Source: Candidatus Woesearchaeota archaeon (GTDB lineage: Archaea; Nanobdellota; Nanobdellia; Woesearchaeales; UBA12501). From it: 38,636 nucleotides of DNA. The translations under genes and the position numbers were made by a program. A model generated the notes under the pieces. The model saw only the letters and a program-made list of their open reading frames with translations. It searched no databases and was not told the origin of the DNA. The stretch lies in contig WJJV01000006.1 in the NCBI GenBank assembly GCA_014729495.1, positions 1-38,636 of the forward strand, written 5' to 3'. Within the stretch, counting starts at the first letter, position 1; each line of letters begins with the position of its first letter. Shown one piece after another: positions 23,150-38,636 of this stretch.

Positions 23150-23540
23150 TATACATCAGCAATAACAATGGAAGTCAAGATATATTTATTATTATGGCAA
23201 CAACAACATCGGATAATGTAATATTCTATCTATGTTGGCAGCAGCAACAACTTTGGATTCGTACACGGTCAAATGATAATATTTTAAGTTAATAACGGCA
23301 ACAACAGAAAATGCTTTGCATTTTCTTAGTTGCAAAAGCTCTGCATTTGCAACAACAATATTGCCAGCAGACGGCCATGCTCACTTTGTTCGCATGTCCT
23401 ACTCGGCACCCCGGAGGGGAAACAGGAAATCAAAGATTTCCTTAGTTGCGCTCGCTTCGCTCGGCAACCATCCCCCGCCTCGTCTGCGGCATTGTTGTTG
23501 CCTGGAATATCCTTCTGCTGCCTGACTAAATCCAAAAGAA
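23150..23540. repeat. inner repeat block B, inverted homolog of 15490-15885
   Basis: It shares ggcagcagcaacaac.ttggattcgtacacggtc and gcaacagaaaatgctttgcattttcttagtt.caaaagc...gcatttg.aacaacaa with the reverse complement of block A. Confidence 0.75.
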
Positions 23541-23543
23541 AAC

Positions 23544-23995
23544 GCCACCTCGCTGTGGTCAGATTTGCAGCGCTTGTCAGCGAGGCTAGGAGTATGTTGC
23601 AATTGAATAAACTAAAAGGAATAGCCACCTCTCCGTGGTCGGGTTCTTTGCGCTTATCGGAGAGGCTAGGAGTTTAAATGTTCTGAAAAATCACTTAAAG
23701 CCATTGCCACCTCGCCAACATAGCATTAGCAGCATCTTATTGGCAAGGCTAGGAGAAGAGTACAATACAATCTTCTTAAAGACATTGCCACCTCTCCGAC
23801 ATAGGGATAGCAGCAACTTATCGGAGAGGCTAGGGAAAGAGTGCAATGCAATCCCAAAAAATCCATTGCCACCTCTCCGACATCAGGATAGCAGCATCTT
23901 ATCGGAGAGGCTAGGAATACTAAAGATAAACTTTCCATATAGACTTTAGCCACCTCTCCGTGGCCGGATTTGCAGTGCTTGTCAGCGAGGCTAGG
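23544..23995 (-). repeat. periodic hairpin array B (6 units, starts 23544/23624/23706/23787/23868/23949)
   Basis: 47-48-nt hairpins of the form gccacctc[gc/tc]c...gcagc...g[gc/ga]gaggctagg at an 80-82 bp period. They lie directly 3' of the minus-strand island (stop at 24072). The inter-hairpin segments are also homologous to each other. Confidence 0.85.
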
Positions 23996-24071
23996 AGAAA
24001 ACTCAGAATTATCCACAAAAAGCAAGATACAATTAATCAGAAAAAGCTTGGATTTCATAAACTAACTTCTT

Positions 24072-25169
24072 TCAGCTGCATCCCACATCCATCTCTTCGT
24101 TTTCTGCATAAGGATAGATTATATTTGCATGGAACTCATCCACTCTGAACGGAAATGGATCTGCCTCTTCAGGATCATCTGATATGCCAGTGTAATTGTA
24201 CAGGTTTCCTCCAGACTCCTTGTTGGATCGCCTGCACATGCCAGGGAACAATGGATCAAACTCATCTGCAAAGTACTGATAGTCTGCATAGCTCTTGTCC
24301 AGGTAAGGGTCTATACCCAGCTCTGTCTGCAAAGTGTCCAGCATCTCCTTTGACACAAGGGACTCTATGCCGCAGCAGGCTGAAGGGCTCAGGTTGCCTT
24401 CAAACCGCATAAGGAAGCTTGGAGCTGACTTGTTCTGGTATATGTAAAGGCCATTGTCTATGACTGTCTGCATGCCTGTCAGGCCTTGATCCTCAAGATC
24501 TATTCCTGACCTGTTTATATGCCTGACAACAATCCTGTTGGTCGCTATGGATATAAGAGGATCCTCAACACCATCCAGCTTAAGGATAGTGCTGACCTGC
24601 ACCTGAGGCCTCACTATTGACATAACTCCAGGGCTGGTGAGATTGTATCCCATTATCATGCTCACATTCACTGTCCATGCTCCTGGCTGGTAGATCCTGA
24701 TTGAAGTAAGATTGTATCTTATGATTATGTTCATCTGCTCTTGGGATATGTTAGTGAGGTTATCAAGCCATGTTGAGATATTGAGGCCTTCCATGCCTGG
24801 AAGACCCACATCCACTCCAAGATTATTTCTTATTGTTCCGTTCATTATTGACTGCTCAAGCACAGCAGTTATATTCTCTATGCGAAAATCAACACCCTCA
24901 TCAACTTTCTTTGATACAACAAACTCTGTTATGCTGTCAAATGACTTATGGGTGAGAGCGAACAAGGCTCTTGGGACATAGACCTTCTCAAAGTTCTCTG
25001 CAAAGTTATTGACAGCTGTCACCCTTACCTGAGCTCTTTCTGCGCGCTCCCTGAATGACAGAAAGTCCTGTGACGAGAAGTACATCATGAAAAGAGAGCC
25101 TATGAGCACAGCTGAGAGGGTGAAGAATATGGCCTTTTTCCTGAGCTCTGCCCTGCTGTTCACTGCCAT
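24072..25169 (-). CDS. pilin-like extracellular protein (365 aa) with a class-III-type N-terminus
   Basis: ELRKKA-IFFTLSAVLIGSLFMMYF is a basic residue plus small residue followed by a hydrophobic helix. There are at least 10 N-x-S/T sequons. The start overlaps the upstream gene end by 10 nt. Confidence 0.55.
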   Translation of the reverse strand: MAVNSRAELRKKAIFFTLSAVLIGSLFMMYFSSQDFLSFRERAERAQVRVTAVNNFAENFEKVYVPRALFALTHKSFDSITEFVVSKKVDEGVDFRIENITAVLEQSIMNGTIRNNLGVDVGLPGMEGLNISTWLDNLTNISQEQMNIIIRYNLTSIRIYQPGAWTVNVSMIMGYNLTSPGVMSIVRPQVQVSTILKLDGVEDPLISIATNRIVVRHINRSGIDLEDQGLTGMQTVIDNGLYIYQNKSAPSFLMRFEGNLSPSACCGIESLVSKEMLDTLQTELGIDPYLDKSYADYQYFADEFDPLFPGMCRRSNKESGGNLYNYTGISDDPEEADPFPFRVDEFHANIIYPYAENEEMDVGCS

Positions 25170-25687
25170 ACTCTCACCTCTGCAACAAAAGGAGGGGAAA
25201 GCTCTGTCTTGTTGTCCACAACAGCAACTATTGTCCTTGATGATACAAGTGATTCTGAGTTGTTCTGCTCCTCGCTCAGGGGGCTGATCTGGGTGTAGAC
25301 AACCCTTTCATCAATTATGAACTGGAAAGAATACTGGATGGGTGTGAGATTCTGGAGTATTACCTCAGAGAAATTCCTGAGAGATACATTATATGATCCT
25401 GGATCCTGCGTATCCTTGAGATGGAACAATGCCATCTGCTCCAGGATTGTGAGCTCATAATCAGTTATGTTTCTATTGTTTATGAGATGAAGAACAGAAG
25501 GATGGGATGAGAAATCCTTTACCTGTGTTGACTGCAGGAGGTCAATAGTGTCCTGCGCAAGGAAGTAAGGCTGTGTGACCTGTGTCTGGGTTGCCTCAGA
25601 GGACCATATAGCCAGAAAAATGACTACAAGGATGAACAGAGCCATCAATATATCCAGAGTGAAAAAATAACCTCTTTTTAGCATCAT
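25160..25687 (-). CDS. pilin-like protein (175 aa), KRG-YFFTLD prepilin-type N-terminus
   Basis: MMLKRG|YFFTLDILMALFILVVIFLAIW resembles type IV (pre)pilin signals, with a G followed by an FTL(D/E)-type helix. Several N-x-S/T sequons are present. The gene starts 9 nt after the stop of the giant gene. Confidence 0.55.
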   Translation of the reverse strand: MMLKRGYFFTLDILMALFILVVIFLAIWSSEATQTQVTQPYFLAQDTIDLLQSTQVKDFSSHPSVLHLINNRNITDYELTILEQMALFHLKDTQDPGSYNVSLRNFSEVILQNLTPIQYSFQFIIDERVVYTQISPLSEEQNNSESLVSSRTIVAVVDNKTELSPPFVAEVRVWQ

Positions 25688-25696
25688 AAACCATCA

Positions 25697-28600
25697 TCAT
25701 GACCAGGCAGTCACTATCATCTTGACAGGTCTGCCGTCTATATACACTATTCTTGTTGTCCTTATGACATCCTCTGCCTCAACTGACTCATTGAGCTCAA
25801 ACCTTGTCTTGTCCTCATCAATCTCAATCTGCTCTCCCTCGCAGCAGCGGTGCTTGATCAGAGGATTGGAAGTATCTCTGAGCAGGAGCCCCTGCTTGAC
25901 GCCTGCGCATGCTGGGTAAAGATCGCAGGTATTTCCTGCATCATCCTCAAATCCCCAGCAGTCAGCTATGCAGATATCTCCATCAAGGAGCGTACAGTCT
26001 GCTGTGCAGTCAAGGTTTATAGGGCATACATCATCAAAGTCAAGAGTGATTGTCTCACCCTGTGAGACATCTGAATAAGTAAGCTCTCTTGTGGAGCTTC
26101 CTGCATAAGATGCCCTCACAGATCCACTTCCAGAAGGTATCTCAAGAGAGTACTCTCCACTGTTGTCAGTTGTAGTTGACAAGCCTCCTGCTGTCACAGT
26201 AGCCCCTGGAAGAGGATTCTCTCCGCATGATACTGTTCCCTCAGCAATTGCTGTCTGACCTATGATTATTGTCGTGCTGTTAGGTATTCCATAATAGCCT
26301 CTTGCTGTGTCCCTTGGCCTGAGCATGACCTCATAAGTGCCGGTGGAGACTTCAGGCACACCCCATGTGAACTCAGTTCCCTGGACTCCAGGAGCTATGA
26401 CCTGGGCCAGTATGCCATCCTTGTACAGCTCAAGATCATACTCAATAGGATTGACTGATGACTGAGCAGACCATGTGAGCTCAAGATTAGTTCCCCTGGC
26501 CACAACAGTTCCGTCAAGAGGAGTATTGAATACAGCGAGACCGCAGTCAGCATCACCCACCCTGCTGTAAGGTATGCCCTCGCTGTAGAAGTTTCCTTCT
26601 CCACCTACGCAATACATATTGCCTCCTGCAGAGTCAATGATGCCACTTCTGTAGAAGTGGTTGAGGTATATCTCATTGCCTGTTGCTCCTGAAGCGAGAT
26701 TAAGGTCATTATAGTTCTCAAGCAGTGCTGCTGTTATTGTGTTGCCCGGCTTCTCTACCCTTATTCCTGTATCATAATCAGACACAGATATATTCCTCAG
26801 CACAATGCTCTCATTCCTTACAAGGATTCCTGTTCCTGAATCAGCAGAAGCAGATGCAAGCCTTGCTCCCTGGCCGTCTATTGTTATGCCAGTGTTGTTC
26901 GTTATTATGACTCCGTCATTGTCATCATCAGCTATGATGTAGAAGTATGGGCACAGCACAACATCATCATTAGCATAATAATTATTATTCTCATCAAGAG
27001 CTGTCTCAAGGTCAAGGCATGGCTCGCAGACATCACCTACACCATTTGCGTCTGTGTCAAGCTGGTCTGGATTTGAGTAGTTTGCATAGCAGTCTGCCTG
27101 AGCAGCAGGATCAGTCACATCAGCGCATGGCTCTGTAGGCACGCAGTTGTCAAAGCTGTCGCACACACCATCCTCATCCCAGTCAATGCACTGGCACTCT
27201 CCTGTATCATCATGGCATATCCTGAAATCATCTGTTGAGTCTGATATTCCTCTCACGCACTCTCCTGGAGCAAGGCAGCAGAAAGTGTCATCTGTGCCTG
27301 CTATAAGTGTCCAGTTGCCTCCCTTGCATACCTCATCAGAACTGCATTCTATGCCTCCATGGCTTGCGCAGCTCTCGCATGCTGCTGTGCATGCAGGATC
27401 AAGGCAGTCAATCTGGCCATTGCAGTCATTGTCTATGCCATCATAGCAGTTTGTCTCAAACATGCTGAGCCCGAACATTCCTGGATCATCGCAGTCTACA
27501 AGTCCGTCGCAATCATTATCTTTTCCGTCAACTATCTCAACAGCACCAGGATATACTCCTGGATCATCATCATTGCAGTCATTGCCTCCGAGAGGGCAGA
27601 GCTGGCTTCCAGTGTATGTCATTGTTCCATCACAGTAATCATCATTGTCATCATCGCATCCATTGTCTGCCAGACCATCACAGTCATTGTCCAGTCCGTC
27701 GCATATCTCTGCTTCAGGCTCGCACACGCAGAAAGGATATTCAGCGCAGTCTGGATCATCGCAGTTAGGGATTCCATCGCAGTCATCATCTATTGGATTG
27801 CCTTCTGAGTCATGATTGAGGCATGATTCATTCAGTATAAGATATTCATCACCTCCAAGAGAGACATATTCATCATCTGGAATAGCTGTTAGGGTATCAT
27901 AATAACCATATCTCCAGGTGATAGTAGAATTGAATATTGTATCTGAGCAGAGGGCTTTTGATCCTGTGCAGAAGGTCTCATTCAAAGGAGTCTCTCCTTC
28001 ACCGTCAAGTGTACTGGGATCACAGTCATCATCAATGCCATTGCATATGTCAGGCATACCAGGATTGATGCATATCGCGCATCCAGATGTATCATAAGAG
28101 CACTGGTCAACAGTTGAAGGGCATCCTGCAGGATCATCTGTCTTGTCATCATCGCAATCCTGCGCATCAGGAAATATGCAACCTCCTCTTAAGAAAGCAT
28201 CTGCTGAATCACCATAGCCGTCTCCGTCAAGATCAGTGCACTGGCATGCTACAGTTGAATTTAAAAAAGATGTATCAGATGATGCCCAAAGTATCTCATA
28301 GACTGGATCAGCCCAGGTTATGCTGCCTAAGTAAGGTCCATAATTGAGACCTTCAACAATGCTTACTTTCTCTCCAAGCCTGTTGCCGTCTATGTCTATC
28401 CTCTCAAAGTAGAGGTTTCCGCCATAATTATATGTGCTGTACACAACTCCAAAGTATTCTCCATTCCATTCAACACCCTGAAGCTCCTGAAGCCCATAAG
28501 CAGTATCGCTTGTGAAGTCCACAAAGTAATCATCAACAACATTCTCTCCAGACATTGGAATCAGGTTTCCATCCATGTCAAAGAGTGCATACATCACCCT

Positions 28601-30382
28601 GATATAGTTCCTTGGAGAGTATCTTGTGGTGAACAGGGCATAAGCATTCTCTTCAGGAATCCATATTATCTGTGGCTTAGGATTTCTTGTTGAATCTATT
28701 GTATCAAGCACTATAAGATCCTCAGAATCAAATACTGCTGGAGCTGAGTTTCCATCACCATCCATATCTATGGGGTTTCCTGCTGCATCTATGGCAGTGT
28801 ATAGGATCTCATTATTGTATCTTGTCCTCCTGTCTCTCCAGACAAGAGCATACTCTCCCTCTGCAGTCCCATCTCCATCCCTGTCAATGTCAGGATTCCA
28901 GACAAGGTCAGGGTATTCAGATTCATAATCATTATATGTTATCCTTGCATCAGAACTTCCGCATGAACCAAATCCGAAATGGAGGTCCTCCGCATTAGTG
29001 AGATCGCTGTTCTCAGGATGCGACTCAACGCAAACAATCCCAGGATCTGCAGCAGGATCATCTTTAGCTGTTGCTTCTGTACCCCAATCATAAGGGAAAT
29101 ATCCTGAAGAATCATCACCACCTATCTTATTGCATTCCTGCCAGTCGCATTCAGCAATATCTCTTCCATCCACAAGCCCGTCGCAGTCATTATCATAACC
29201 ATCAAAGCAGTCCTCAGGGATTGAGGAACAATACTTGCATCCTATATCAGCAGAGCAGTCCTCATCATCGCAGTCAACAAATCCGTCGCAGTCATCATCA
29301 ATATAGTTTCCGCATACCTCAGCACTGCACAAGCCTGACTCCAGGATAACGCACTGATGATTGCTGACAACCTCAACATCATAAGCCATTATCCCCGGGA
29401 TCTCTTTGAGAGTGTCTGCTCCGCACTCAACCATTCCGCTGGAATGTATGAGGCACCTGTAATCACTTATCAATACAGGCGACACATCAATAGCATCAGT
29501 AACACCTGTATCTTCAGGTGTCCTGTCCCAGCAGGAAACTGTTCCATCAGACAGCACAGCGCATTTTGGTGAGACTTCTAATGCATCTGTGATGCCTTCT
29601 ACATAAGCAGGAGACTCCCATATGGTCACATAGTTCTTTCCCCAGCACTTCACAGCACCATAAGCTAGCTTAGCGCATGTGAAAAATCCTGAGGATGACA
29701 CTTCAACAGCATGCTCAACATCAATAACAGGCTCTGCTTTTGGGTGAGGATCCCAGTCCTGGACTCCCTGGCCAAGATTATAATCCCTGTTCCTTCCCCA
29801 GCAGGCAACAGTATAGTCTGGAAGCAATGCGCAGCTGTGGTCATTGCCTACAGCAATATCAATAGCTGATATAGGATTGTCAGACTGGTCAATAACCTGC
29901 ACAGGAGAATTCCTGTTCTCTCCAGATGTTCCATCACCAAGCTGGCCGAATGCATTGTATCCCCAGCAGTACACAGGGCTTCCGTCAGACATATCGCCGT
30001 CATCAACAAGAGCACAGGTATGGTAATGGCCTGCCTCAACCTGAAGAACACCTGATAATGCACTTACCTGCAATGGATCAGCATTCGTGAATGAAGAGTA
30101 ACCAACACCCAGCTGTCCGAGATTGCCTCTTCCCCAGCACCATAATGTCTTGTCATCCTTTATTGCGCAGGTGTGGTCTGTGCCAACTGCAATATCAACA
30201 GCATCAGCAATTCCAGAGACCTCAACAGGAGCATCGCTGGCATCAGTGCTGCCATCTCCCAGCTGGCCATAATCATTGCTTCCCCAGCAGGCCATGTTGC
30301 TCTGCGCACTGGCCAGACCCATACAAAGCACAGCCATGACTACAATAACCATCCACATTCCGGGTCTCTTTGCTTTGTTCAT
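25697..30382 (-). CDS. giant secreted multidomain protein (1561 aa): RCC1-like propeller, MopE-like Cys motifs, W-x-G repeat propeller, TSP3-like repeats, right-handed beta-helix, CarboxypepD_reg-like domain
   Basis: The ATG at 30382 gives MNKAKRPGMWMVIVVMAVLCMGLASAQS, a signal peptide. The track start at 30397 is TTG. CWG..GQLGDG repeats occur at least four times. Other motifs are DNDCDG / DCDD..PGA.E.C.G.DDDCD, DWDEDGVCDSFDNC...NPDQLDTDANGVGDVCE, NNTGITIDGQGARL...GILVRN...GIRVE, and GATVTAGGLSTTTDNSGEYSLEIPSG. Confidence 0.8.
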   Translation of the reverse strand: MNKAKRPGMWMVIVVMAVLCMGLASAQSNMACWGSNDYGQLGDGSTDASDAPVEVSGIADAVDIAVGTDHTCAIKDDKTLWCWGRGNLGQLGVGYSSFTNADPLQVSALSGVLQVEAGHYHTCALVDDGDMSDGSPVYCWGYNAFGQLGDGTSGENRNSPVQVIDQSDNPISAIDIAVGNDHSCALLPDYTVACWGRNRDYNLGQGVQDWDPHPKAEPVIDVEHAVEVSSSGFFTCAKLAYGAVKCWGKNYVTIWESPAYVEGITDALEVSPKCAVLSDGTVSCWDRTPEDTGVTDAIDVSPVLISDYRCLIHSSGMVECGADTLKEIPGIMAYDVEVVSNHQCVILESGLCSAEVCGNYIDDDCDGFVDCDDEDCSADIGCKYCSSIPEDCFDGYDNDCDGLVDGRDIAECDWQECNKIGGDDSSGYFPYDWGTEATAKDDPAADPGIVCVESHPENSDLTNAEDLHFGFGSCGSSDARITYNDYESEYPDLVWNPDIDRDGDGTAEGEYALVWRDRRTRYNNEILYTAIDAAGNPIDMDGDGNSAPAVFDSEDLIVLDTIDSTRNPKPQIIWIPEENAYALFTTRYSPRNYIRVMYALFDMDGNLIPMSGENVVDDYFVDFTSDTAYGLQELQGVEWNGEYFGVVYSTYNYGGNLYFERIDIDGNRLGEKVSIVEGLNYGPYLGSITWADPVYEILWASSDTSFLNSTVACQCTDLDGDGYGDSADAFLRGGCIFPDAQDCDDDKTDDPAGCPSTVDQCSYDTSGCAICINPGMPDICNGIDDDCDPSTLDGEGETPLNETFCTGSKALCSDTIFNSTITWRYGYYDTLTAIPDDEYVSLGGDEYLILNESCLNHDSEGNPIDDDCDGIPNCDDPDCAEYPFCVCEPEAEICDGLDNDCDGLADNGCDDDNDDYCDGTMTYTGSQLCPLGGNDCNDDDPGVYPGAVEIVDGKDNDCDGLVDCDDPGMFGLSMFETNCYDGIDNDCNGQIDCLDPACTAACESCASHGGIECSSDEVCKGGNWTLIAGTDDTFCCLAPGECVRGISDSTDDFRICHDDTGECQCIDWDEDGVCDSFDNCVPTEPCADVTDPAAQADCYANYSNPDQLDTDANGVGDVCEPCLDLETALDENNNYYANDDVVLCPYFYIIADDDNDGVIITNNTGITIDGQGARLASASADSGTGILVRNESIVLRNISVSDYDTGIRVEKPGNTITAALLENYNDLNLASGATGNEIYLNHFYRSGIIDSAGGNMYCVGGEGNFYSEGIPYSRVGDADCGLAVFNTPLDGTVVARGTNLELTWSAQSSVNPIEYDLELYKDGILAQVIAPGVQGTEFTWGVPEVSTGTYEVMLRPRDTARGYYGIPNSTTIIIGQTAIAEGTVSCGENPLPGATVTAGGLSTTTDNSGEYSLEIPSGSGSVRASYAGSSTRELTYSDVSQGETITLDFDDVCPINLDCTADCTLLDGDICIADCWGFEDDAGNTCDLYPACAGVKQGLLLRDTSNPLIKHRCCEGEQIEIDEDKTRFELNESVEAEDVIRTTRIVYIDGRPVKMIVTAWS

Positions 30383-30393
30383 TCTATCTATTA

Positions 30394-30810
30394 TCAAGTA
30401 TTGATCTCTCTGGGAAGAACGCTCTTGACAAACTCAAGAGCTGACTTTGTCTTCTCTTCAGAAACCTCTTCTGCTCCATATACAGCTAAATTTCTCAGTT
30501 TCCTCAGTTCATCAAAATTATCCAGCATCCCAGAATCCATTTCAGAATAATTCTCTTTCAGATAAGCTATCAGGACTTCATGCGAGTAAGGCTTGTACCC
30601 ATCTGCGCAAAGAACTGCCTGCGCTGCTTCCCTCAGGCTTTCATAGACATCCTCAAATATGAATCCCGAATTATCATCTGAGAGGGTCTGTGATTCAATA
30701 TATTTCAGCCTATCCTCTGCCTTTTTCATAAGCGAAGCTGCCATCTCATTGTCTGGCTGCTGTTTCACTGCTTTTTTCTCTTTCATGTAAAACTCAAAGC
30801 TTCTTATCAT
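30394..30810 (-). CDS. HEPN-domain protein (toxin partner of MNT)
   Basis: A ~138-aa helical protein with ...LREAAQAVLCADGYKPYSHEVLIAYL... and ELRKLRNLAVYG (the R-x-x-R-N-x-x-x-Y region typical of PF05168-type HEPN). It overlaps the upstream nucleotidyltransferase gene by 4 nt. Confidence 0.65.
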   Translation of the reverse strand: MIRSFEFYMKEKKAVKQQPDNEMAASLMKKAEDRLKYIESQTLSDDNSGFIFEDVYESLREAAQAVLCADGYKPYSHEVLIAYLKENYSEMDSGMLDNFDELRKLRNLAVYGAEEVSEEKTKSALEFVKSVLPREINT

Positions 30811-31334
30811 TTTATCAGTCTCAAAAAACCATGGAGCGTGATTCCATTCGCAAGATTGTTCCTGAACTCCTTGCTGGCTTTGTCAAGCTTTATCTTATGG
30901 ATGTTTATCCTCCTTTTCAGGCTTTTCTCGTATTTTGCTGTGTTGATGTCTTTTTTCTTGTCTGTTATGACTGCAATGTCAATGTCTGATCTGCCTGTGT
31001 CCTCTCCTCTTGCATAGCTGCCGAAAAGCACTACTGCTTCTGGCAGGTACTTCTCTGCAATCTCCCTGATCACTCCGCAGCTTGATATGCTGTAGATGTT
31101 TGATGCTCTTTTCAGGGCAACAAACTCTTTGTTGTCAGTATTTGCCAGGTAGTTGTCTGTCACCCTGGTCTTTTCCTTTGAAACAAGGTCCTGTTTCACA
31201 AGCTTCCTCAGGATCTTCAGGACTCCTGCAGGCGACAGGCCTGTGAGCCTTGCTATCTCCCTCAGGTGGAAGCTTGTGTCTGGATTCTGCAGGAACATAT
31301 CCATGACCCTGTCTGTGTTTGTTTTTGTGAACAT
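30807..31334 (-). CDS. wHTH-fused minimal nucleotidyltransferase (MNT antitoxin-type)
   Basis: The N-terminal HLREIARLTGLSPAGVLKILRKLVKQDLV is a wHTH. VVLFGSYARGEDTGRSDIDIAVI matches the GS-x10-D-x-D NTase motif. Confidence 0.75.
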   Translation of the reverse strand: MFTKTNTDRVMDMFLQNPDTSFHLREIARLTGLSPAGVLKILRKLVKQDLVSKEKTRVTDNYLANTDNKEFVALKRASNIYSISSCGVIREIAEKYLPEAVVLFGSYARGEDTGRSDIDIAVITDKKKDINTAKYEKSLKRRINIHKIKLDKASKEFRNNLANGITLHGFLRLIK

Positions 31335-31356
31335 ATGTTAACTCCAGTTAACATAT
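31333..31356. promoter_or_regulatory. perfect 10-bp inverted repeat (putative operator) overlapping the MNT start codon
   Basis: The sequence is atatgttaac-tcca-gttaacatat. On the minus strand it lies between a tttaaatatata TATA-like element and the ATG at 31334. Confidence 0.5.
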
Positions 31357-31387
31357 ATATTTAAATGTTGTGTTTTTTCTTTATTGT

Positions 31388-31474
31388 TTACTTTAATGAA
31401 CATTTGTTTACTTTTGTTGACACCACTCTGGCTGCCAAAACAGTCCACATTCCGGGTCTCTTTGGATTTGCCAT
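31388..31474 (-). pseudogene. orphan 5' end of a giant-protein paralog (28 codons)
   Basis: MANPKRPGMWTVLAARVV...* shares a 21-nt identical stretch, caaagagacccggaatgtgga, with the start of the 25697-30382 gene (MNKAKRPGMWMV...). Confidence 0.35.
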
Positions 31475-31500
31475 TTTGTTCTTGTTTTTAGGTTATTTGT

Positions 31501-32304
31501 TTATCTGCAGCAGGTTATAAATATTCCTTCTCTGCACCGGTTACCCATTCCTCCTCCAGCATGGCATTTCAGATTAATTTGTCCCGGCCATCTGTCTTGC
31601 ACACCTATATACATATATTCTCCTTCACTGTGCCAGGTATCTCTAAAAAATGCATAGTCCACATCAAGCAATACAGGATGTGTGGATGGACACTGCAAAT
31701 TTATAGTATCACCATTTGAATTAAATTCATAACCTCCTGAAGTCAGATCATTCTCAACACTTTTGCTTCCACTATTTGCAGGTTTTCCATAAAACAGAAC
31801 ATCACATCTGCCTGGCATGAAGTTTCCTGAGACAGCAAAATCTCCATTAACTCTGGTATTACCACCTAAAACAAGATCTGAAGTTGAATCTGAATTGGAG
31901 ATAGCACCAGATACATGCAGTCGGTCATCTATAGTCACTATATCCCCATCAGGATTTAATACTGAACCACTAACCTCAATATTTCCACCTACAGCAGCAT
32001 CATTAGTGATATCCAGGCCATTAGTGCCTTCAACTCTTGTGTAACCTGTGACAACAAGCTGGTCATCTACTATAACATTGCCTGCTGGGTCTGCATTGGC
32101 TACTGTTCCTGTCAGCTTGAGGTCATCATCCACTGTCACTCCAGTGCCTGACTTGCCTGTTATCAGGTCAGTGAACAGTGTCCCATGCGATGGCTGGTCT
32201 GCACTGTATGTCTGCGCAATCACAAAACCAGCTGCTCCGATCATCACAATCACTGCAATCGTCAACCATAAGTGTTTTTTTAAAATGTTTATTTCGATTT
32301 TCAT
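31501..32304 (-). CDS. signal-anchored protein with beta-helical [VI]xGx repeats and a Cys-rich C-terminal domain (267 aa)
   Basis: The N-terminus MKIEINILKKHLWLTIAVIVMIGAAGFVIAQ is paralogous to that of the next gene. Periodic repeats are present (LKLTGTV, LVVTGYTRVEG, IEVSGSV, LHVSGAI, TRVNGDFAVSGNF). Eight Cys residues sit in the last 100 aa. Confidence 0.6.
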   Translation of the reverse strand: MKIEINILKKHLWLTIAVIVMIGAAGFVIAQTYSADQPSHGTLFTDLITGKSGTGVTVDDDLKLTGTVANADPAGNVIVDDQLVVTGYTRVEGTNGLDITNDAAVGGNIEVSGSVLNPDGDIVTIDDRLHVSGAISNSDSTSDLVLGGNTRVNGDFAVSGNFMPGRCDVLFYGKPANSGSKSVENDLTSGGYEFNSNGDTINLQCPSTHPVLLDVDYAFFRDTWHSEGEYMYIGVQDRWPGQINLKCHAGGGMGNRCREGIFITCCR

Positions 32305-32317
32305 TTTTTATCACCTT

Positions 32318-32761
32318 TTATTGCATGCCTACTGCAATCCAATATATTTCTATAGGGTTGCTTTCACCTGGCTGCTGGATTATTGTGAAGCCAGTATTAG
32401 TGACATCTGTCAGATAGAAACCATAATAGATTCCGTCATATTCACTATTAGTCTCAAAATCAGTGAATGCATCTTGAACCATCCAATCTAAGGGATCTCC
32501 TTCTAATGTTGGCTTTTTCCAGTATATCTTTATCAGAGGCTTGTCTGAGTAGGTATTCTGGAAAGTAACTGCAGTAGCTGAGTCAGCCCCCCCTGTGGTC
32601 ACAGTGCCGGACTCAATAGGGATATCACTGATCTCACTCCAGGGATGCCCCTGTGTGTTTCCTACTGCCTGAGCATAGGCAAATACTCCTATCATAATCA
32701 CTGCAATAGTAATCATCAAAGCCCAAAAATGCTTTTTTTCAATATTTATTTTAAATTCCAT
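32318..32761 (-). CDS. signal-anchored H-type-lectin-like protein (147 aa)
   Basis: The N-terminus is MEFKINIEKKHFWALMITIAVIMIGVFAYAQA. SGTVTTGG...TAVTFQNTYSDKPLI ... DVTNTGFTII...IEIYWIAVG resembles the H_lectin pattern (sG.v...vtF..F...P.v ... nvt.tGF ... v.WiA.G). This is recalled from memory, not searched. Confidence 0.5.
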   Translation of the reverse strand: MEFKINIEKKHFWALMITIAVIMIGVFAYAQAVGNTQGHPWSEISDIPIESGTVTTGGADSATAVTFQNTYSDKPLIKIYWKKPTLEGDPLDWMVQDAFTDFETNSEYDGIYYGFYLTDVTNTGFTIIQQPGESNPIEIYWIAVGMQ

Positions 32762-32770
32762 TTTCTCACC

Positions 32771-35700
32771 TCAACTGCTGTACTCACAGCATATTGTCTT
32801 TGTATAAGGGCTTGCTGTGTCTCCTGCACAGCCAGCCACATGCGAATCATCATTCTTGTATACTGTTGCCACGCATGTTCCTGTATCACATGTCCCGCTG
32901 CCAGCATATTCATGGCATGTTATTGCACCTGTGTCAGCTGCCATGCAGATGTCACTGTCATAATATCCTTGTGTAAGGCTCACATGGCTGTTGTCTGTTC
33001 CATACTTTGACAGCACAAATTCATCTTCTGCTCCTGAGCAGTCAGTTGCAGTAAGACCAGCCTCAGCCAGATTGCAGCAGACATTGTTATCATAATATCC
33101 TGCAGTGCCTATATGAGAGTCATACAAGCCATACATCGTGAACAATGTTGCCTCAGTGCATGCTTCCTGACCTATTGAGCAGACCAATCCTGTCTCAATG
33201 ACACAGTCTGCAGTGCATCCGTCTCCATTCAGCTTGTTCCCGTCATCGCACTCCTCTCCTGAGTCAACAACACCATCTCCGCAGGAAGGCAGTGTGCAGT
33301 CAGTCCTGCACTCATCAGGAGCAGTGTCGCTGTTTGCAGTCCCATTATCACACTCTTCTATGAACTCGACATCTCCGTTACCGCAGACAGGCATTCCCAC
33401 TGCGCAGCATATCTTAGTGTTATAATCATCGCAGTCTCCGATGTGGGCATCTGACTCTGAGGTCACTGAAGCTACGCAGGAGTATCCCTCGTCACAGTCT
33501 CCAGTATTGTAATCGCATATCACAGAGCCTCTGCTTGTCTCCTGGATTGACATGCATGCAGGATTCGTGAATCCTCCTTCAGCAGGCACTTCTACATGAG
33601 CATCATCCTCTGAAGATAGCTCAAGGAAAGCATCTCCATTATCGCATGTTGTGTCCAGAGTAGCTCCTTCTACCTTGCAGCATATCCTGTTTGCGAAATC
33701 TCCAGTATTAGGCAGTGCTGCATGAGCATCAGTCATTGATGACTTCTTCAGCACTTCAATGAATCCAAATTCATCAGGGCATGTTGCCTGCATATGCACG
33801 CATTCAAATCCCCACACTCCTTCAAGAGTGCATTTTCCTGAGCAGCCGTCAAAATATTCAGTGTTGCCGTCATCGCACTGCTCTCCGCCTTCAACCTTTC
33901 CGTTTCCGCATATCTCTTTCTCCTCTGCAAAAAGCATCATCTGGTAGAATATGCCATTAGGAAGAAGCGATGTGTTCCAGAAGTAATCATGATATTGTAT
34001 CTTGATGTCTGTTATGCTTAGCACTCCTGACTGAGCCCTGATCTCAACAGGAATCTGGCATATCTCATCTATGTCAGCATCGCATGAATCATTGATATAA
34101 TCATTGAGCAGTCCAGAAAAGTCAGCCATAGACTGCCTTCCATTGAATTCTCCTGCAGCTCCCCACTCATAGTATCCATCCATCCCTATATCTATTCCAG
34201 GATTAACAGCTCTGCTTCCTGAAACATCAAAAGTAGCCAGATATACTTTAGATGCCTTTGGCACATAAAGATACTGGATCGGCGCATTGCAGTAAGCGCT
34301 GCCTTCACAGTCAGGATCCTCACAATCCCTCAGCCCGTCACAGTCATTGTCAAGGCCGTCATTGCATGATTCTTCTGCAGGCTCGTAGGCTAGAATTGAA
34401 GAGATATCATCCTGCCATCCTGCTGTACCCACACAGGTCTGCAGGCTTCCAGCACATACACCTTTCTGGAGACTATTAAGAGGCGGTTCTTCTCCTGAGC
34501 CATCTGCTGTTGAAGGGTCGCAGTCATCATCTATGCCATTGCATATTTCAGAAGCTCCTGGATGTACTGATGCATCTGAATCATCGCAGTCCTCTTCCTG
34601 ATATAAACAGCTGACTCTCTCCTCTTCTGTTCCTGTCCCATAACCATCCCCATCTATATCCTCACATGTAAGACACCCTAATTTAGTGAAATAAACACCA
34701 GGAACTGAGTCTTCATTAGCCCATACAAAAATATACTCAGAACCTGTCCAGACAAAGGATGATCTAAAAAATACAGGCGAATCACTTCTTCCGTTCCCTA
34801 TATATAATTCGCTCTCAATGGGCTGTTCATTCTCATCAGCTCTGCTGAAATATATATCTGTTTCATCACCAGAAGGGATAGATCTTGATATATAATATTC
34901 AACTCCATTCCACTTAACTTTACCAATATTAAAGCCAAGGATTTCATCGCTAAGTATGTTTCCGTCCATATCAAGCTTGATAAGGTGAGGATTACCATCA
35001 ATAACACCATTACCAAATACATAAATACTTGAGTCTCTGATTATATTACTAAGTCCTGAAAGCCTATAATCTATAGCCTGTTTTTTAAGCTCTATTGTGC
35101 CGCTCTGGCTGATTCTTGCAAAATAGATAGTGAAATAAGGGCTGTCTTCATTCCATATAACAACATATTTTGACCCTGTCCAGATTACGCTTGACCCAGC
35201 TGAGTATTCTGGAGTGTCTGACACAAGAATCCTTGACCCAATAAGATTTCCCTGGGCATCAGCTCTCTGAAGATACACTTCAAAGTTATCAGGTGTCGCC
35301 TCTTCTATATAAGTGAAAGCATACTCTTGGCTATCAGGATTCCATATGACAGATTCCAGATAAGCTGATTTTGTGTTTGATGTAATCTGCTTTGCATCAA
35401 CAATCTTATTGCCCTGAGCATCCACTGCAGCAAAAGCCACCTGATCAGGATAACCACCACTGCCGCAAATATTAGTAGGATGATAATTCTGTTCTCTCCA
35501 GAACACACCATAGCTTGATCCTGTCCATCGAATAAAGGAACTGCTGAAGGAGCACTCTACATCATCTATCTTTGTCGCAGAAAGCAGGTTAGCATTCTCA
35601 TCAAATCTTCCAAGATATATTCTTGCACCAAGAAACTCCTCCTGAGTATAGTTCAAATAGGATATTCCCAACTCCAAGTCATCAGGATTCCATACAGCAT

Positions 35701-35875
35701 AAGGAAGAAATTTCTCAAACGAATAAGATGTATCTACAATATTAACAGTAGGAATCACTTTAGAGACATGACCCTCAGAACAGTAATCCTCCTGGGCATT
35801 AGAGATGGCACTGCTCAAGAGCACAATCATAACTGCCAAAACCATCCACAATCCGATTGTTCTTGATTTTTTCAT
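32771..35875 (-). CDS. giant secreted protein (1034 aa): W-x-G-x-x-Y repeat propeller, MopE-like motifs, DUF4215 (Myxococcus Cys-rich) repeats, six D-[AS]-H...CC repeats
   Basis: The signal peptide is MKKSRTIGLWMVLAVMIVLLSSAISNAQ. Repeats include RWTGSSYGVFW, VIWNPDSQEYAF, VIWTGSKYVVIW, VKWNGVEYYI and FVWTGSEYIFVW. Other motifs are DCDDSDASVHPGASEICNGIDDDCD, CGNGKVEGGEQCDDGNTEYFDGCSGKC and CGDGVVDSGEECDDGNKLNGDGCTADC. Confidence 0.8.
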   Translation of the reverse strand: MKKSRTIGLWMVLAVMIVLLSSAISNAQEDYCSEGHVSKVIPTVNIVDTSYSFEKFLPYAVWNPDDLELGISYLNYTQEEFLGARIYLGRFDENANLLSATKIDDVECSFSSSFIRWTGSSYGVFWREQNYHPTNICGSGGYPDQVAFAAVDAQGNKIVDAKQITSNTKSAYLESVIWNPDSQEYAFTYIEEATPDNFEVYLQRADAQGNLIGSRILVSDTPEYSAGSSVIWTGSKYVVIWNEDSPYFTIYFARISQSGTIELKKQAIDYRLSGLSNIIRDSSIYVFGNGVIDGNPHLIKLDMDGNILSDEILGFNIGKVKWNGVEYYISRSIPSGDETDIYFSRADENEQPIESELYIGNGRSDSPVFFRSSFVWTGSEYIFVWANEDSVPGVYFTKLGCLTCEDIDGDGYGTGTEEERVSCLYQEEDCDDSDASVHPGASEICNGIDDDCDPSTADGSGEEPPLNSLQKGVCAGSLQTCVGTAGWQDDISSILAYEPAEESCNDGLDNDCDGLRDCEDPDCEGSAYCNAPIQYLYVPKASKVYLATFDVSGSRAVNPGIDIGMDGYYEWGAAGEFNGRQSMADFSGLLNDYINDSCDADIDEICQIPVEIRAQSGVLSITDIKIQYHDYFWNTSLLPNGIFYQMMLFAEEKEICGNGKVEGGEQCDDGNTEYFDGCSGKCTLEGVWGFECVHMQATCPDEFGFIEVLKKSSMTDAHAALPNTGDFANRICCKVEGATLDTTCDNGDAFLELSSEDDAHVEVPAEGGFTNPACMSIQETSRGSVICDYNTGDCDEGYSCVASVTSESDAHIGDCDDYNTKICCAVGMPVCGNGDVEFIEECDNGTANSDTAPDECRTDCTLPSCGDGVVDSGEECDDGNKLNGDGCTADCVIETGLVCSIGQEACTEATLFTMYGLYDSHIGTAGYYDNNVCCNLAEAGLTATDCSGAEDEFVLSKYGTDNSHVSLTQGYYDSDICMAADTGAITCHEYAGSGTCDTGTCVATVYKNDDSHVAGCAGDTASPYTKTICCEYSS

Positions 35876-35897
35876 TGTCTCTTTTTTTCTTTGTTTC

Positions 35898-38636
35898 TCA
35901 TGATAATGTCCTGATGTGATTCCAGTTATTATAGTGCTGTTTCAACTGCTCTTGGGTCAAGACAGTATTGTATGCTGAAACCTCATCAATGATTCCTGCA
36001 AAAGATCCTGATCCTATATTAAGGTTGTCTCCTGCCCAGAATCCTCCAGTGAATTCCTCTGAACCCTCAAGTTCTCCATTTATGTATATTTTCAGATTTG
36101 AGCCATCATAAGTTGATGCCAGATGATACCACTCACCTGCTGTCAAGGATGAGTCTGAGGTAACTTGTGCACTTGATCCAGAATATGCTGACACAGAAAG
36201 CTTGCCACTCTTTATCCTGAGCATATTATAGTTTGTCTTCTCAAGTATCTCTCTATTGTAATCCACTGAATCAGGTCTGACCCATGCCTCAAAAGTGAAA
36301 GAATCTTCCATATCTTCTCCAACAAAAGGCTCGTTTCCAACAACAACATTATCTAGAGAATTATCAAAGGATAATCCATTGCCGAACAGCCCTGGAACCC
36401 ATGAGTCCTTAAGACCATCACTAAGGTCTCCATTCTTATTATTGCTGCTTGAGTCAAAAGCTGTTTCTCCGCTTGTCTCATCCAACTTCAGGTAAATGAC
36501 CCTGGAATCAAGATAACTGGGCTGTGTTGCAGGACAGCTTCCGCAATCCAGGCTGCAAGAATTGCAGTCTTCTTCAATTGAGCATATCCCATCAGGTCTG
36601 CCGCAGTCGCTGAAGCAGTTCACGCATGTTTCTCCTGCATCGCATGTGCCGTCACCGCATGTTGAAGGGCAGTCAGTTCCGAGTATGCAGTCTTCTGGGC
36701 AGGTGCCACAGTCCTCTCTCAATAGATTGCAGACACCATCACCGCAATAACCAAACTTCTCCTTTATGATGTCCCAATTATGATAATTTGCCTGAACCTG
36801 CTTCTGAGTCAGTGCTATGCCGTACATTGAGAACTCATCTATCTGTCCGTCCATCGGAAGATCAAATGAACTGCCCAATACCAGAGGCGCGGATTCATCA
36901 TTCATAGGATAAGGACAGCTGGCAGAAGCCCCAATGTGATCCTCCAGCATGCCATCAAGATATATGTTTGCTCCCTGCTCTGGATCAAAAGTGCATACAA
37001 CATGATGCCATTCTCCTGTACTTACAGGTGTTGTAGTGTGGGGTATGCATGCAGTTGAGTCACCATAACGGCAGCCTATCACTCCAGAATCCACTCCCAT
37101 AGCATATTGCACATGCCATGAGCCTGTAAAGTATGTCTTGCCGAATATGTACTGTTTTCCTGCATCATCCAGCTTCAACCATGTCTCAAATGTAACACTT
37201 TCAGGCAGGTTGGCATCAAGAGCAGGATGGTCAGGAACTTCAACAGTGTCTCCACCGCTGAAATCAAGAGCTTTTTCAAATTCAGAGTCAACAAGCTCTG
37301 CGCCATGGATAATTCCCTCATGGCCATTCTCAGTAATATCTTTTAAGGAATCTCCTGAACCATCATCAAAATTCCAGTAAGCAATCATGTTGCTTGAATA
37401 GAAAAAAGGCTCAATTAAACAAGCATTGTCGCACCCATCACCCTCCTTGAAATTTCCATCATCACATTCTTCATTTCCAAGGAATATATGTCCGTCTCCG
37501 CAGATATTGTCTTTGCAGAAAGAAGTGCAGGCATCATTATTGTCTGTGTTGCCATCATCGCACTCCTCATCACCATCAATAACTCCATTTCCGCATTCAA
37601 CCTGGCAGTTCTCATCGCATCCATCGTCATTCAGATTATTCCCATCATCACACTCTTCTGGCGCATGGGTTGTGCCGTCAGGATTTGACCAGCTGGATGC
37701 CTGGAGCACGCCATCACCGCAGTATTCAAGCTTGCATTTTAGTGAACAGCCGTCATCATCCTGCCTGTTGCTGTCATCGCACTGCTCATAGATGCCGTAT
37801 GAATTAGGTGACTGAACCACTCCATCACCGCAGTCTGACCTTGTGCAGTCAGGAGAGCAGTGCTCACTTCCCTCAGGTCCCCTGTCGCATTCCTCTCCAG
37901 GTTCTGTGAGACCGTTTCCGCAGAAGGGCTCTGTGTCAGGAAGCTTTCCAGGATAGAATCCTACTGAGAAATTACGGCTCTCATTGATTGTGTCTATGAT
38001 GCCATAATCACTCTCCATAAGATACCAGTTCCCTCCGCTGTTATTGCTGTAATATAATGAGTATGATACTGAGTCATTCTCTGGATCAACTGCAGGACTC
38101 CAGTTTACCATTATGCTCTGATTGTAGTTTCCGCTGTCAACAGGATTTATCAGGAATGGTATTGATGCCTCTGGCACCTGGTTTGGATAAACCTCAAGAA
38201 GCCCGTCAAGAAGGCCTCCTTGTGACCTGAACGGATCAGTGAAGCCTGCTGAAGTGAGTACGCTTGCCTCAAAATAGTATTCAGGAGGATCGCAGGCAGC
38301 TTCCAGCACACCCCAGTCAGAGAACATAGCGCAGTCAGGAGTGTATACTGCAGGCCACTCAGCAACAGCCCTGCCATCATTGAAATTCGCTTTTGGCCTT
38401 TCTGCAAACTGGCTCATGCCGTCATCGCCGGAAAGCGTGTCATCCTCCCAGATATCAAAATAAGCTTCGTAATCCTGGCAGGCTTCTCCTTCCAATGTAA
38501 GGGCCACCCTGCTTCCTGCAGTTGCATTGCTTCTTGACCAGTAAGCATCTGTTATTGTGCATGGGCATACTGCCTGGTTCTCTCCATCAACTAGCCCGTC
38601 GCAGTCATTGTCCTTTCCGTCTGTGCAGTTCTCAAC
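35898..38636 (-). CDS. giant secreted protein, 5'-partial (at least 912 aa in the window): MopE-like motif, Fn3-like domain, ~6 DUF4215 repeats, two LamG (Laminin_G_3) domains
   Basis: The frame stays open upstream of the GTG at 38507 to the window edge (...VENCTDGKDNDCDGLVDGENQAVCPC...). CGNGLTEPGEECD, CGDGVVQ..., CGDGVLQ...EECDDGNNLNDDGCDENC, CGNGVIDGDEECDDGNTDNNDAC and CGDGHIFLGNEECDDGNFKEGDGC are the DUF4215 repeats. The LamG signatures are GEWHHVVCTFD...IYLDG...IDEFSMYGIALT and GEWYHLASTYDGSNLKIYINGE...GIIDEVSAYNTVLT. Confidence 0.8.
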   Translation of the reverse strand, partial: VENCTDGKDNDCDGLVDGENQAVCPCTITDAYWSRSNATAGSRVALTLEGEACQDYEAYFDIWEDDTLSGDDGMSQFAERPKANFNDGRAVAEWPAVYTPDCAMFSDWGVLEAACDPPEYYFEASVLTSAGFTDPFRSQGGLLDGLLEVYPNQVPEASIPFLINPVDSGNYNQSIMVNWSPAVDPENDSVSYSLYYSNNSGGNWYLMESDYGIIDTINESRNFSVGFYPGKLPDTEPFCGNGLTEPGEECDRGPEGSEHCSPDCTRSDCGDGVVQSPNSYGIYEQCDDSNRQDDDGCSLKCKLEYCGDGVLQASSWSNPDGTTHAPEECDDGNNLNDDGCDENCQVECGNGVIDGDEECDDGNTDNNDACTSFCKDNICGDGHIFLGNEECDDGNFKEGDGCDNACLIEPFFYSSNMIAYWNFDDGSGDSLKDITENGHEGIIHGAELVDSEFEKALDFSGGDTVEVPDHPALDANLPESVTFETWLKLDDAGKQYIFGKTYFTGSWHVQYAMGVDSGVIGCRYGDSTACIPHTTTPVSTGEWHHVVCTFDPEQGANIYLDGMLEDHIGASASCPYPMNDESAPLVLGSSFDLPMDGQIDEFSMYGIALTQKQVQANYHNWDIIKEKFGYCGDGVCNLLREDCGTCPEDCILGTDCPSTCGDGTCDAGETCVNCFSDCGRPDGICSIEEDCNSCSLDCGSCPATQPSYLDSRVIYLKLDETSGETAFDSSSNNKNGDLSDGLKDSWVPGLFGNGLSFDNSLDNVVVGNEPFVGEDMEDSFTFEAWVRPDSVDYNREILEKTNYNMLRIKSGKLSVSAYSGSSAQVTSDSSLTAGEWYHLASTYDGSNLKIYINGELEGSEEFTGGFWAGDNLNIGSGSFAGIIDEVSAYNTVLTQEQLKQHYNNWNHIRTLS

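Follow-up and report, generated by a model that had tools for sequence, protein, structure and literature searches.

A giant cysteine-rich protein island in a Woesearchaeota archaeon: a probable adhesin and minor-pilin module of a type IV pilus-like apparatus

Introduction

How do Woesearchaeota hold on to other cells? DPANN archaea depend on contact with a host cell, and the means by which Woesearchaeota attach is the question addressed here through one contig of a Candidatus Woesearchaeota archaeon (WJJV01000006.1, assembly GCA_014729495.1), whose entire length of 38,636 bp is called the window below. Positions 24072-38636 hold an island of nine open reading frames (ORFs), all on the minus strand, with inter-gene gaps of -10 to 22 nt and a single larger gap of 166 nt. 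In the order of transcription the genes are G3, G2, w147, w267, MNT, HEPN, G1, w175 and w365, and their coordinates are collected in Table 1. An initial annotation had described this island as co-oriented and tightly packed, which is confirmed, had read it as a candidate attachment apparatus built from giant surface proteins, lectin-like and pilin-like genes, and had seen in it no named system. On this last point the outcome is different: the two pilin-like genes w175 and w365, together with the C-terminus of the giant protein G1, are the copies in the window of a three-gene block which in most related loci is part of a layout known from archaeal type IV pili of clade 1, also called system 1. 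We regard it as probable that the island is the adhesin and minor-pilin module of an archaeal type IV pilus-like apparatus (“system 1/Epd-like”) of a Woesearchaeota-type DPANN archaeon, encoded in this lineage apart from its ATPase and platform genes.

A three-gene block shared with complete pilus loci

A scan of the GTDB species representatives found 111 species with a relative of w365, and the best 80 loci were kept (numbered with an L below). The loci were annotated with hidden Markov models (HMMs) built only from sequences outside the window, and block counts are given over 85 loci. The recurrent gene order is typeA, typeB, fam365, a protein of ~320-390 amino acids (aa), T2SSE, T2SSF, T2SSF and major pilins, where the first three names stand for the families represented in the window by G1, w175 and w365. 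In 80 of the 85 loci, typeB immediately precedes fam365. The T2SSE ATPase gene and two T2SSF genes are found in 57 of them, and many of the other loci are on short contigs; as a rule, major pilin genes come next. Since the three-gene block stands directly upstream of T2SSE, two TadC/T2SSF genes and major pilins in most of the ~80 related loci, its layout is that of a named system. The related loci encode short major pilins with Q at position +1 and at least five class III-type minor pilin-like genes. Among them, the loci of distant homologues contain the T2SSE ATPase, the two T2SSF platform genes, KaiC-like ATPases, major pilins (KKGQ/AAMEF...), small class III-signal proteins, and giant LamG/VWA/DUF2341 proteins that possess pilin-like N-termini of their own (KRG/VFFSID...).

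The w365 protein begins with RKKA/IFFTLS and a transmembrane (TM) helix, followed by a long helix and an alpha/beta domain. A word-index search returned 28 homologues, and a profile built from them matches 1,939 representative clusters. All homologues of the pilin-like genes, these 28 included, come from metagenome-assembled genomes (MAGs) of Woesearchaeota or Nanoarchaeota, in agreement with the archaeal lineage first proposed for the sequence. Neither fam365 nor typeB corresponds to a Pfam or NCBIfam family. Three motifs are invariant in fam365: D203-P204, S-F-L-M-R at 251-255, and G267-x-E-S270 (PSFLMR...GIES; alignment A1). Minor pilins are not usually conserved to this degree, and the motifs may belong to an interaction or catalytic site.

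The w175 protein has a class III-like N-terminus, MMLKRG/YFFTLD, that leads into a TM helix, and an invariant C-terminus, EVRVWQ. Both the KRG/YFFTLD motif and its KKA/IFFTLS counterpart in w365 are invariant across their respective families. The initial annotation's view of these two proteins as pilin-like is thus borne out by N-terminal form and by genomic context, with no match of either to the Pfam Class_IIIsignal model. The gene call deposited with the source assembly gives w175 only 161 aa, starting at Met15 with the signal removed; homologues of 172-179 aa back the longer form used here. Because a start at Met15 deletes the class III-like signal, automated annotation would mask the pilin-like nature of this protein.

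In many related loci typeB is itself a giant. Over its full length, w175 aligns with the first ~155 aa of the giant VWA/LamG/DUF2341 typeB proteins. The ten residues at the C-terminal end of w175 (PFVAEVRVWQ) also correspond to the C-termini of those giants (PAVIEIRVWE, GPTVVEARVWR). As the bare w175 matches both ends of the giant form, the adhesin domains of the giants are an insertion placed before the last strand of a pilin-like scaffold, which w175 represents with no insert. In the AlphaFold2 model of w175 (predicted local distance difference test score 82.4, from an alignment of 7 sequences), a TM helix is followed by a helical bundle and a sheet in which the invariant tail forms the last strand. 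The models of w175 and w365 share an N-terminal helix followed by a beta-sheet.

The tail of G1

The gene upstream of typeB is normally small, encoding 155-190 aa or 366-436 aa. These small typeA proteins start with the pattern K-[AGS]-Q/[VA]-W-[YS]-x-D-[FL] and end in tails such as ...KTERYLTYNSKVVKMVVYLWE, directly before the stop codon. G1, which takes up the same position, is the largest typeA seen, and its C-terminus reads ...RTTRIVYIDGRPVKMIVTAWS. An HMM of the typeA tail, made from non-window sequences, has its sole match among the 669 six-frame ORFs of the window at the extreme C-terminus of G1 (E 4e-5; next best 1.7). When the profiles of large and small typeA proteins are compared by hhalign, they align with 94.6% probability (E 7e-8), and the alignment is confined to the last 28 columns. 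BLASTP of the C-terminal 167 aa of G1 against the small typeA proteins gives nothing significant, so that the homology is seen by profile methods only. G1 has neither the pilin-type N-terminus of the small typeA proteins nor their DUF7287-like body, and carries a Sec-like signal (ASA/Q) instead.

Six of ten small typeA proteins match DUF7287 over its full length close to the threshold; the best of them reaches 25.4 bits, where the cut-off is 27. G1 and its orthologue in L089 align weakly, with their tails, to the C-terminal end of the same model, G1 over the last ~40 model positions only. Upstream of the tail, residues ~1036-1560 of G1 are conserved in the typeA proteins of L001, L008, L009 and L010. 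This core comprises the TSP3-like region, the beta-helix-like region, an immunoglobulin (Ig)-like domain, a CarboxypepD_reg domain, the Cys module and the tail. The heads differ within the clade, being an RCC1 propeller in G1 and a Kelch domain in L001.

A separate observation concerns the very last residues. TypeA proteins end in ...CG or ...CS in 10 loci (L005, L011, L013, L016, L017, L020-L022, L037 and L040), and in 10/10 of these fam365 ends in ...[RK]-[TSA]-C; a C-terminal Cys in typeA is thus always accompanied by one in fam365. The pairing would fit an intermolecular disulfide, and as the loci form one clade it is not relied on here.

Payload on one partner or the other

Bare typeB proteins of ~175 aa and giant ones keep different company. 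Next to a bare typeB, a typeA was found in 15 loci; it is Cys-rich in all of them (8-93 Cys), measures 391-1566 aa where full-length, and has an ordinary Sec-type signal wherever the N-terminus is intact. Next to a giant typeB, a typeA was found in 39 loci, and all of these are proteins of 117-436 aa with 0-5 Cys. The adhesin payload is thus on typeA or on typeB, never on both. Another bare-typeB locus, L030, encodes a protein of 871 aa and 68 Cys that resembles typeA but is divergent. In seven loci (L011, L016, L017, L020-L022 and L040), Cys-rich typeA genes with a Sec signal sit inside operons that contain the ATPase and platform genes, which makes them genuine members of pilus operons.

Domain content of the giants

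The three very large proteins are as first described: at least 912 (G3), 1034 (G2) and 1561 (G1) aa, with 5.2-5.6% Cys compared with 0.5-1.7% in the housekeeping proteins of the same window. They are acidic as well (D+E 17-19%, K+R 4-5%). The related signal peptide that had been attributed to each of them, of the K/R-x-x-G-[LM]-W-M-V type, is present as a signal-like N-terminus in G1 and G2; for G3 the statement cannot hold, because its N-terminus lies outside the window.

Most of the domain families proposed from the sequence alone are recovered above curated cut-offs. In G1 these are RCC1 (131 bits) and RCC1_2 (96 bits; Pfam, above gathering score), Cu-binding_MopE and CarboxypepD_reg; the RCC1 propeller also matches UVR8 and HERC2 in the PDB by sequence (E 2e-33). 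The MopE model (PF11617, cut-off 27) scores 36.6 bits in G1 and 38.9 in G2. DUF4215 and TIGR02232 are found in G2 (36.5 and 67.5 bits, respectively) and in G3 (45.1 and 77.6 bits, with four DUF4215 copies), and the curated models do not find them in G1. G3 carries two Laminin_G_3 domains (PF13385, 163 bits across two stretches), which resemble the S-layer-domain protein 4qvs (E 8e-7), and a MopE-like end.

Other proposals stood in part. The W-x-G-x-x-Y repeats are real and homologous between G1 and G2 (BLASTP E 7e-12 over 288 aa), but correspond to no Pfam family. The TSP3-like motif N-P-D-Q-x-D-x-D-x-x-G-x-G-D-x-C is visible in G1 at 27023-27073, but the isolated segment reaches just 19.8 bits with TSP_3 (PF02412), below the cut-off of 25. 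The right-handed beta-helix has no match in G1 with the Beta_helix and NosD models; at the equivalent position, the L089 orthologue matches NosD with 30.5 bits, above the threshold of 23.6.

Besides the parts already named, G1 has MopE-type repeats and a predicted signal cut at A26/Q27 if the Sec pathway is used. G2 is made up of a signal peptide (predicted cut A27/Q28), the W-x-G-x-x-Y repeat domain, a MopE motif, DUF4215/TIGR02232 repeats and a six-copy D-[AS]-H module, for which neither Pfam nor a PDB sequence search gives a match. The MopE and DUF4215 repeats of the giants are probably disulfide-rich extracellular spacers, and copper binding is not implied by them. Taken as a whole, the domain content of the island is most plausibly read as serving extracellular adhesion.

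Table 1. Genes of the island in the order of transcription, each followed by the parts mapped within it.
Feature	Position	Strand	Remarks
G3	35898-38636	-	At least 912 aa; 5' end beyond contig end
G3, four DUF4215/TIGR02232 Cys-rich repeats	~37452-37922	-	
G3, LamG domains (two)	~36771-37388 and 35919-36503	-	
G2	32771-35875	-	1034 aa; secreted, Cys-rich
G2, W-x-G-x-x-Y repeat domain	~34709-35701	-	
G2, six-copy D-[AS]-H-[VI]...Y...[IV]-C-C module	~32822-33736	-	~45 aa each, arranged 3+3
w147	32318-32761	-	147 aa; small secreted protein
w267	31501-32304	-	267 aa; small secreted protein
MNT nucleotidyltransferase (antitoxin-type), N-terminal winged helix-turn-helix	30807-31334	-	Polbeta/NTP_transf_2, 48 and 44 bits
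HEPN (toxin-type)	30394-30810	-	HEPN, 33.7 bits
G1, Cys-rich, in the typeA position of the pilus block	25697-30382	-	1561 aa, ATG at 30382; 1566 aa from TTG
G1, RCC1 propeller	29630-30298	-	Pfam and PDB sequence match
G1, W-x-G-x-x-Y domain	28277-28912	-	Shared with G2
G1, TSP3-like motifs	27023-27184	-	Sub-threshold
G1, beta-helix-like region	26630-26926	-	Model match in L089 orthologue only
G1, Cys module	25949-26029	-	
G1, C-terminal 29 aa, typeA tail motif	25700-25786	-	SVEAEDVIRTTRIVYIDGRPVKMIVTAWS; common to small pilin-like typeA proteins
w175, typeB, pilin-like, bare form	25160-25687	-	175 aa
w365, fam365, pilin-like	24072-25169	-	365 aa; start overlaps w175 by 10 nt

Small secreted proteins and an inserted toxin-antitoxin pair

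The N-terminal regions of w147 and w267 are paralogous (M-E-F-K-I-N-I-E-K-K-H-F-W...), and define a small family with the consensus M-[KE]-[IF]-[EK]-I-N-I-x-K-K-H-x-W, members of which lie immediately upstream of typeA in L009, L010 and L089. The H-type lectin initially suggested for w147 shows up as a weak, partial match of its C-terminal head to H_lectin (PF09458; E 1e-3), but at 19.5 bits stays below the cut-off of 24; the single detectable homologue of w147 reaches 20.3 bits. In L089, a 128-aa relative of w147 is found directly upstream of typeA. In w267, the conserved N-terminal region is followed by a repetitive stalk and then by a head that contains Cys and has CCR as its last residues, and homologues of 191 and 214 aa ending in CCK stand directly upstream of typeA in L009 and L010. 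This head (31501-31650, ending in CC[KR]) resembles the D-[AS]-H-[VI]...CC modules of G2, and a single head with the CC[KR] ending also occurs in the small proteins of L009, L010 and L089.

Between w267 and G1 lies a HEPN/MNT pair (30394-31334) that had been missed at first. The two genes overlap by 4 nt, and both families are detected above their cut-offs. The pair is absent from that position in L001, L009, L010 and L089; it is a window-specific insertion and stands outside the adhesion module. Toxin-antitoxin pairs have been inserted repeatedly in or near pilus blocks, in the window as well as in L003, L069 and L071: a PIN-like (DUF3368) pair separates typeB and fam365 in L003 (9184-9970), and HEPN/MNT homologues with 41-45% identity to the MNT of the window are found in L069 (1397-2355) and L071 (2604-3532).

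A conserved cassette

The window belongs to a clade, with L001/L008/L088, L009, L010 and L089, in which gene order is conserved: giant(s), small secreted protein(s), typeA, typeB, fam365, diphthine synthase (Dph5) and FtsZ. This conservation was one of the checks proposed in the initial annotation. Homologues of G2 are found upstream of typeA in L001, L010 and L089, and both G2-like and G3-like genes recur upstream in the clade; the N-terminal 227 aa of the partial G3 are 42% identical to a partial giant of L001. Pseudogenization was considered and rejected, all ORFs of the island being intact and keeping 30-55% identity to their relatives. G2, G3, w147 and w267 may be tied to the pilus module, as adjacency and clade-level synteny suggest.

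How might such a cassette work? The anatomy of the genes, their domain families, the homology of the three block genes, the operon context of these genes in relatives and the payload rule are established by the analysis; processing, docking, association with a pilus in this genome and an adhesive function are inferred from it, and the steps are proposed as follows. The w175 and w365 proteins would enter the membrane by their class III-like N-termini, be processed by a prepilin peptidase encoded elsewhere, and come together as a minor-pilin subcomplex; the pilus to which it belongs would be assembled by an ATPase and platform supplied in trans. G1 would be exported by Sec and dock on this subcomplex by its last ~28 residues, which are homologous to the C-terminal strands of the small, distantly DUF7287-like typeA minor pilin that occupies the same operon position elsewhere. 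Its disulfide-rich spacers of Ca-binding type would then hold out the RCC1 propeller and other binding domains toward a surface or a host. G2, G3, w267 and w147 may be further secreted adhesion-type proteins that draw on the same toolkit, co-transcribed with G1 and conserved at the level of the clade.

A more far-reaching version is offered tentatively, and we think it possible though doubtful. The last ~28 residues of typeA would be a portable docking tag, acting by strand addition or by a C-terminal disulfide, that lets interchangeable Sec-exported giants sit on an adaptor made of typeB and fam365. Payload would be shuttled between the adaptor, where it enters before the last strand of typeB, and the tagged partner. 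The clade of the window would have turned this into an autonomous cassette away from the pilus motor, rapidly diversifying its heads (RCC1, Kelch and others) for host recognition.

Weighing the alternatives

Several results weigh against the assignment to a pilus module. HMMs from the relatives find no T2SSE among the window ORFs, and the flanking genes give no Pfam match to it; T2SSF platform genes are likewise absent from the 38.6-kb window, and no window protein matches the peptidase A24 family of prepilin peptidases. The same holds in all close relatives, where ATPase, platform, major pilin and prepilin peptidase genes are absent beside the module. A Foldseek search of the PDB with w365 and w175 gives no match at E<=1e-3 (the best for w365 is NTF2-like, TMq 0.13), which is why “pilin-like” rests on N-terminal form and context, and a pilin fold is not claimed. 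The link between G1 and typeA consists of a 28-residue motif scoring 17.5 bits, and no pilus-block motif is carried by G2, G3, w147 or w267. By HMM, 15 of 30 bare-typeB loci have no adjacent typeA. Lastly, the loci behind the payload rule and behind the Cys co-occurrence cluster phylogenetically, and so represent few independent events.

With the motor missing, a stand-alone complex has to be considered, in which the trio has been freed from pilus assembly and the helices of w175 and w365 anchor G1 at the cell surface without any filament. Six loci of the clade (the window, L001/L008/L088, L009, L010 and L089) agree with this, as they lie beside diphthine synthase and FtsZ with no adjacent ATPase or platform gene, and so do the other bare-typeB loci L030, L039, L050 and L065, which lack both within 10 kb. 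However, the class III-like N-termini KRG/YFFTLD and KKA/IFFTLS have been retained at invariant positions, archaeal ATPase/TadC modules can serve pilins that are encoded in trans (PMC4858521), and the loci examined are contig fragments only. We hold a filament-free anchor to be unlikely. Might G1 and G2 themselves be giant pilins? The [KR]-x-x-G/[ML]-W-M-V segment would in that case be a class III signal cut after Gly8, with the hydrophobic stretch kept as the pilin helix and the giants built into the filament. The basic-small-(G/Q)-hydrophobic-W pattern does look like that of the small typeA pilins (KKSQ/AWYTDF...), it is conserved in the giants of the clade (G1, G2, L001, L008, L010 and L089), and giant typeB proteins with true pilin N-termini exist. 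Yet a textbook Sec c-region directly follows the ~18-aa hydrophobic region in both (ASA/Q in G1, SNA/Q in G2), as also in w267, w147 and a 1081-aa protein of L001, and in canonical operons the large Cys-rich typeA proteins start with a plain Sec signal that lacks a G/A site. Archaeal prepilin sites usually need a charged residue at position -2 (the FlaFind rule), and this position is uncharged in G1 and G2. Incorporation of the giants as pilins is quite improbable in our judgment.

The giants could also be unrelated secreted or S-layer-associated proteins, for instance MopE-like metal-binding or envelope proteins, that merely neighbor the pilin-like genes. The whole neighborhood, with ligase, nitroreductase, FtsZ and Dph5, is syntenic in the relatives, which makes clade-level synteny weak evidence for a functional linkage; the likeness of the G3 LamG domains to an S-layer-domain protein and the lack of the block motif in G2 and G3 point in the same direction. 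For G1, on the other hand, both the tail motif and the payload rule extend to distant loci that otherwise have no synteny in common, the spacing to w175 is 9 nt and w175 and w365 overlap, and Cys-rich typeA genes occur inside ATPase-containing operons elsewhere. Mere neighborhood is a very unlikely account. The module of a type IV pilus-like apparatus, with its motor encoded elsewhere, is the reading that we prefer.

Comparison with known systems

Archaeal type IV pili of clade 1 (Makarova, Koonin and Albers, 2016; PMC4858521), or system 1 (bioRxiv 10.64898/2026.04.22.720090), are characterized by a pair of platform genes, numerous minor pilins and large putative adhesins of the pilus tip, and have been reported in methanogens, Thermococcales and DPANN (PMC4858521; bioRxiv 10.64898/2026.04.22.720090). 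With the system 1 or Epd pilus of Methanococcus maripaludis and its relatives, the related Woesearchaeota loci share one T2SSE, two TadC/T2SSF genes, Q+1 major pilins, minor pilins, and one or two very large DUF2341/LamG/VWA proteins, which are proposed tip adhesins. The window differs in holding the minor-pilin and adhesin part of this layout only, there being no ATPase, platform or major pilin genes nearby in the window or its clade, and in having a Cys-rich, Sec-exported typeA as the carrier of the payload in place of a pilin-fused DUF2341 protein. As neither fam365 nor typeB is covered by Pfam or NCBIfam, we do not claim that they are orthologues of named Epd components.

The analogy between archaeal large adhesins and bacterial PilY1 has already been drawn (PMC4858521; bioRxiv 10.64898/2026.04.22.720090). 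G1 would resemble the pair of PilY1 and FimU-PilVWXE as a large non-pilin beta-propeller adhesin with a Sec signal, encoded in one operon with the minor pilins on which it is thought to ride. No relationship to PilY1 in sequence or fold was found, however, G1 combining an RCC1 propeller with Cys-rich repeats and not the C-terminal propeller of PilY1, and its docking mode is suggested by the 28-aa tail motif only. The giants further share acidic, disulfide-rich extracellular repeats with the myxobacterial-type TIGR02232/DUF4215 and MopE D-x-D-C-D-G families. These are modules and not a system, and the window proteins combine them with RCC1, LamG and unassigned domains. DUF7287, an archaeal Pfam family, is resembled by the small typeA proteins over its full length, with all matches below the curated cut-off. 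Finally, the SPEARE proteins of Ca. Nanohaloarchaeum antarcticus are reportedly very large, secreted, multi-domain proteins of a reduced archaeal genome with a proposed part in host contact. They are similar to the window giants in this general form but differ in domain content, and we know of no reported link between SPEARE-type giants and a pilin block.

Earlier work has thus described both large adhesins in the loci of archaeal type IV pili and the presence of system 1 in DPANN. As far as a partial check of the literature goes, the following appear to be new: the three-gene block with its fam365 family, the placement of payload on one partner or the other, the tail of 28 residues by which Sec-exported giant Cys-rich proteins are tied in, and the detached cassette form. 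According to a groundwater study, DPANN lack the components of type IV pili, and pili were used there to label cells as candidate phyla radiation (CPR) (bioRxiv 10.1101/2020.05.14.094862). Woesearchaeota MAGs bearing the sample labels of that study (prefix NC_groundwater; L011-L027 etc.) carry complete ATPase/platform/pilin operons. The widespread fam365 pilus-operon family, the typeA/typeB payload rule and the tail that links giant adhesins to the pilin block are objects that can be tested. Were the tail indeed a docking tag, it would explain how host-binding heads can be swapped in reduced genomes without altering the assembly machinery, and it would flag candidate host-recognition proteins in hundreds of MAGs.

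Other features of the window

The left 24 kb of the window is occupied by archaeal housekeeping genes, among them CDP-archaeol synthase, an intein-containing DNA ligase, FtsZ, diphthine synthase and tRNAs with apparent introns. The ligase (16021-18810) measures 929 aa, including an intein of ~300 aa with a LAGLIDADG domain. For the syntenic ligase, the gene call in L001 is 585 aa long, and simple ORF predictions for L001, L008 and L010 come to 602-618 aa; at 585-618 aa, the ligases of these three loci have no intein. A Hel308-type helicase ORF (11597-13186) starts inside the second RecA domain and lacks the DEAD/RecA1 half. It is closely preceded by a free-standing LAGLIDADG ORF (9568-10362) and by an ORF with a PHP domain, and the helicase gene may be split or rearranged. 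Two tRNA matches, at 3766-3893 (128 nt) and 4076-4163 (88 nt), are much longer than 76 nt, which is consistent with archaeal tRNA introns; ARAGORN reported the second only.

A hairpin unit of 47-48 nt, arranged as GCCACCTC-stem-loop-stem'-GGCTAGG, is present in nine copies, where 0.01 would be expected by chance. Six copies spaced by ~81 nt form an array on the plus strand between diphthine synthase and w365 (23544-23995), and three are on the minus strand between tRNA-Arg and the DNA ligase (15273-15480). The stems show compensatory variants (CTCGCTG/CAGCGAG and CTCTCCG/CGGAGAG), Rfam has no match in the hairpin-repeat array, and ORFs of 100-115 aa at 23326-24058 are artefacts of it. To read the 81-nt repeats as CRISPR-like (clustered regularly interspaced short palindromic repeats) was rejected, the stretches between the hairpins being themselves repeated; candidates are an element like a repetitive extragenic palindrome (REP) or a miniature inverted-repeat transposable element (MITE), or an array of small RNAs. 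Outside the island, on the minus strand at 2763-3665, the window encodes one more secreted Cys-rich protein, of 300 aa with 7.3% Cys and an NEW3/NPCBM_assoc domain, whose Gly/Ser-rich C-terminus has a hydrophobic end and which is probably a further surface protein.

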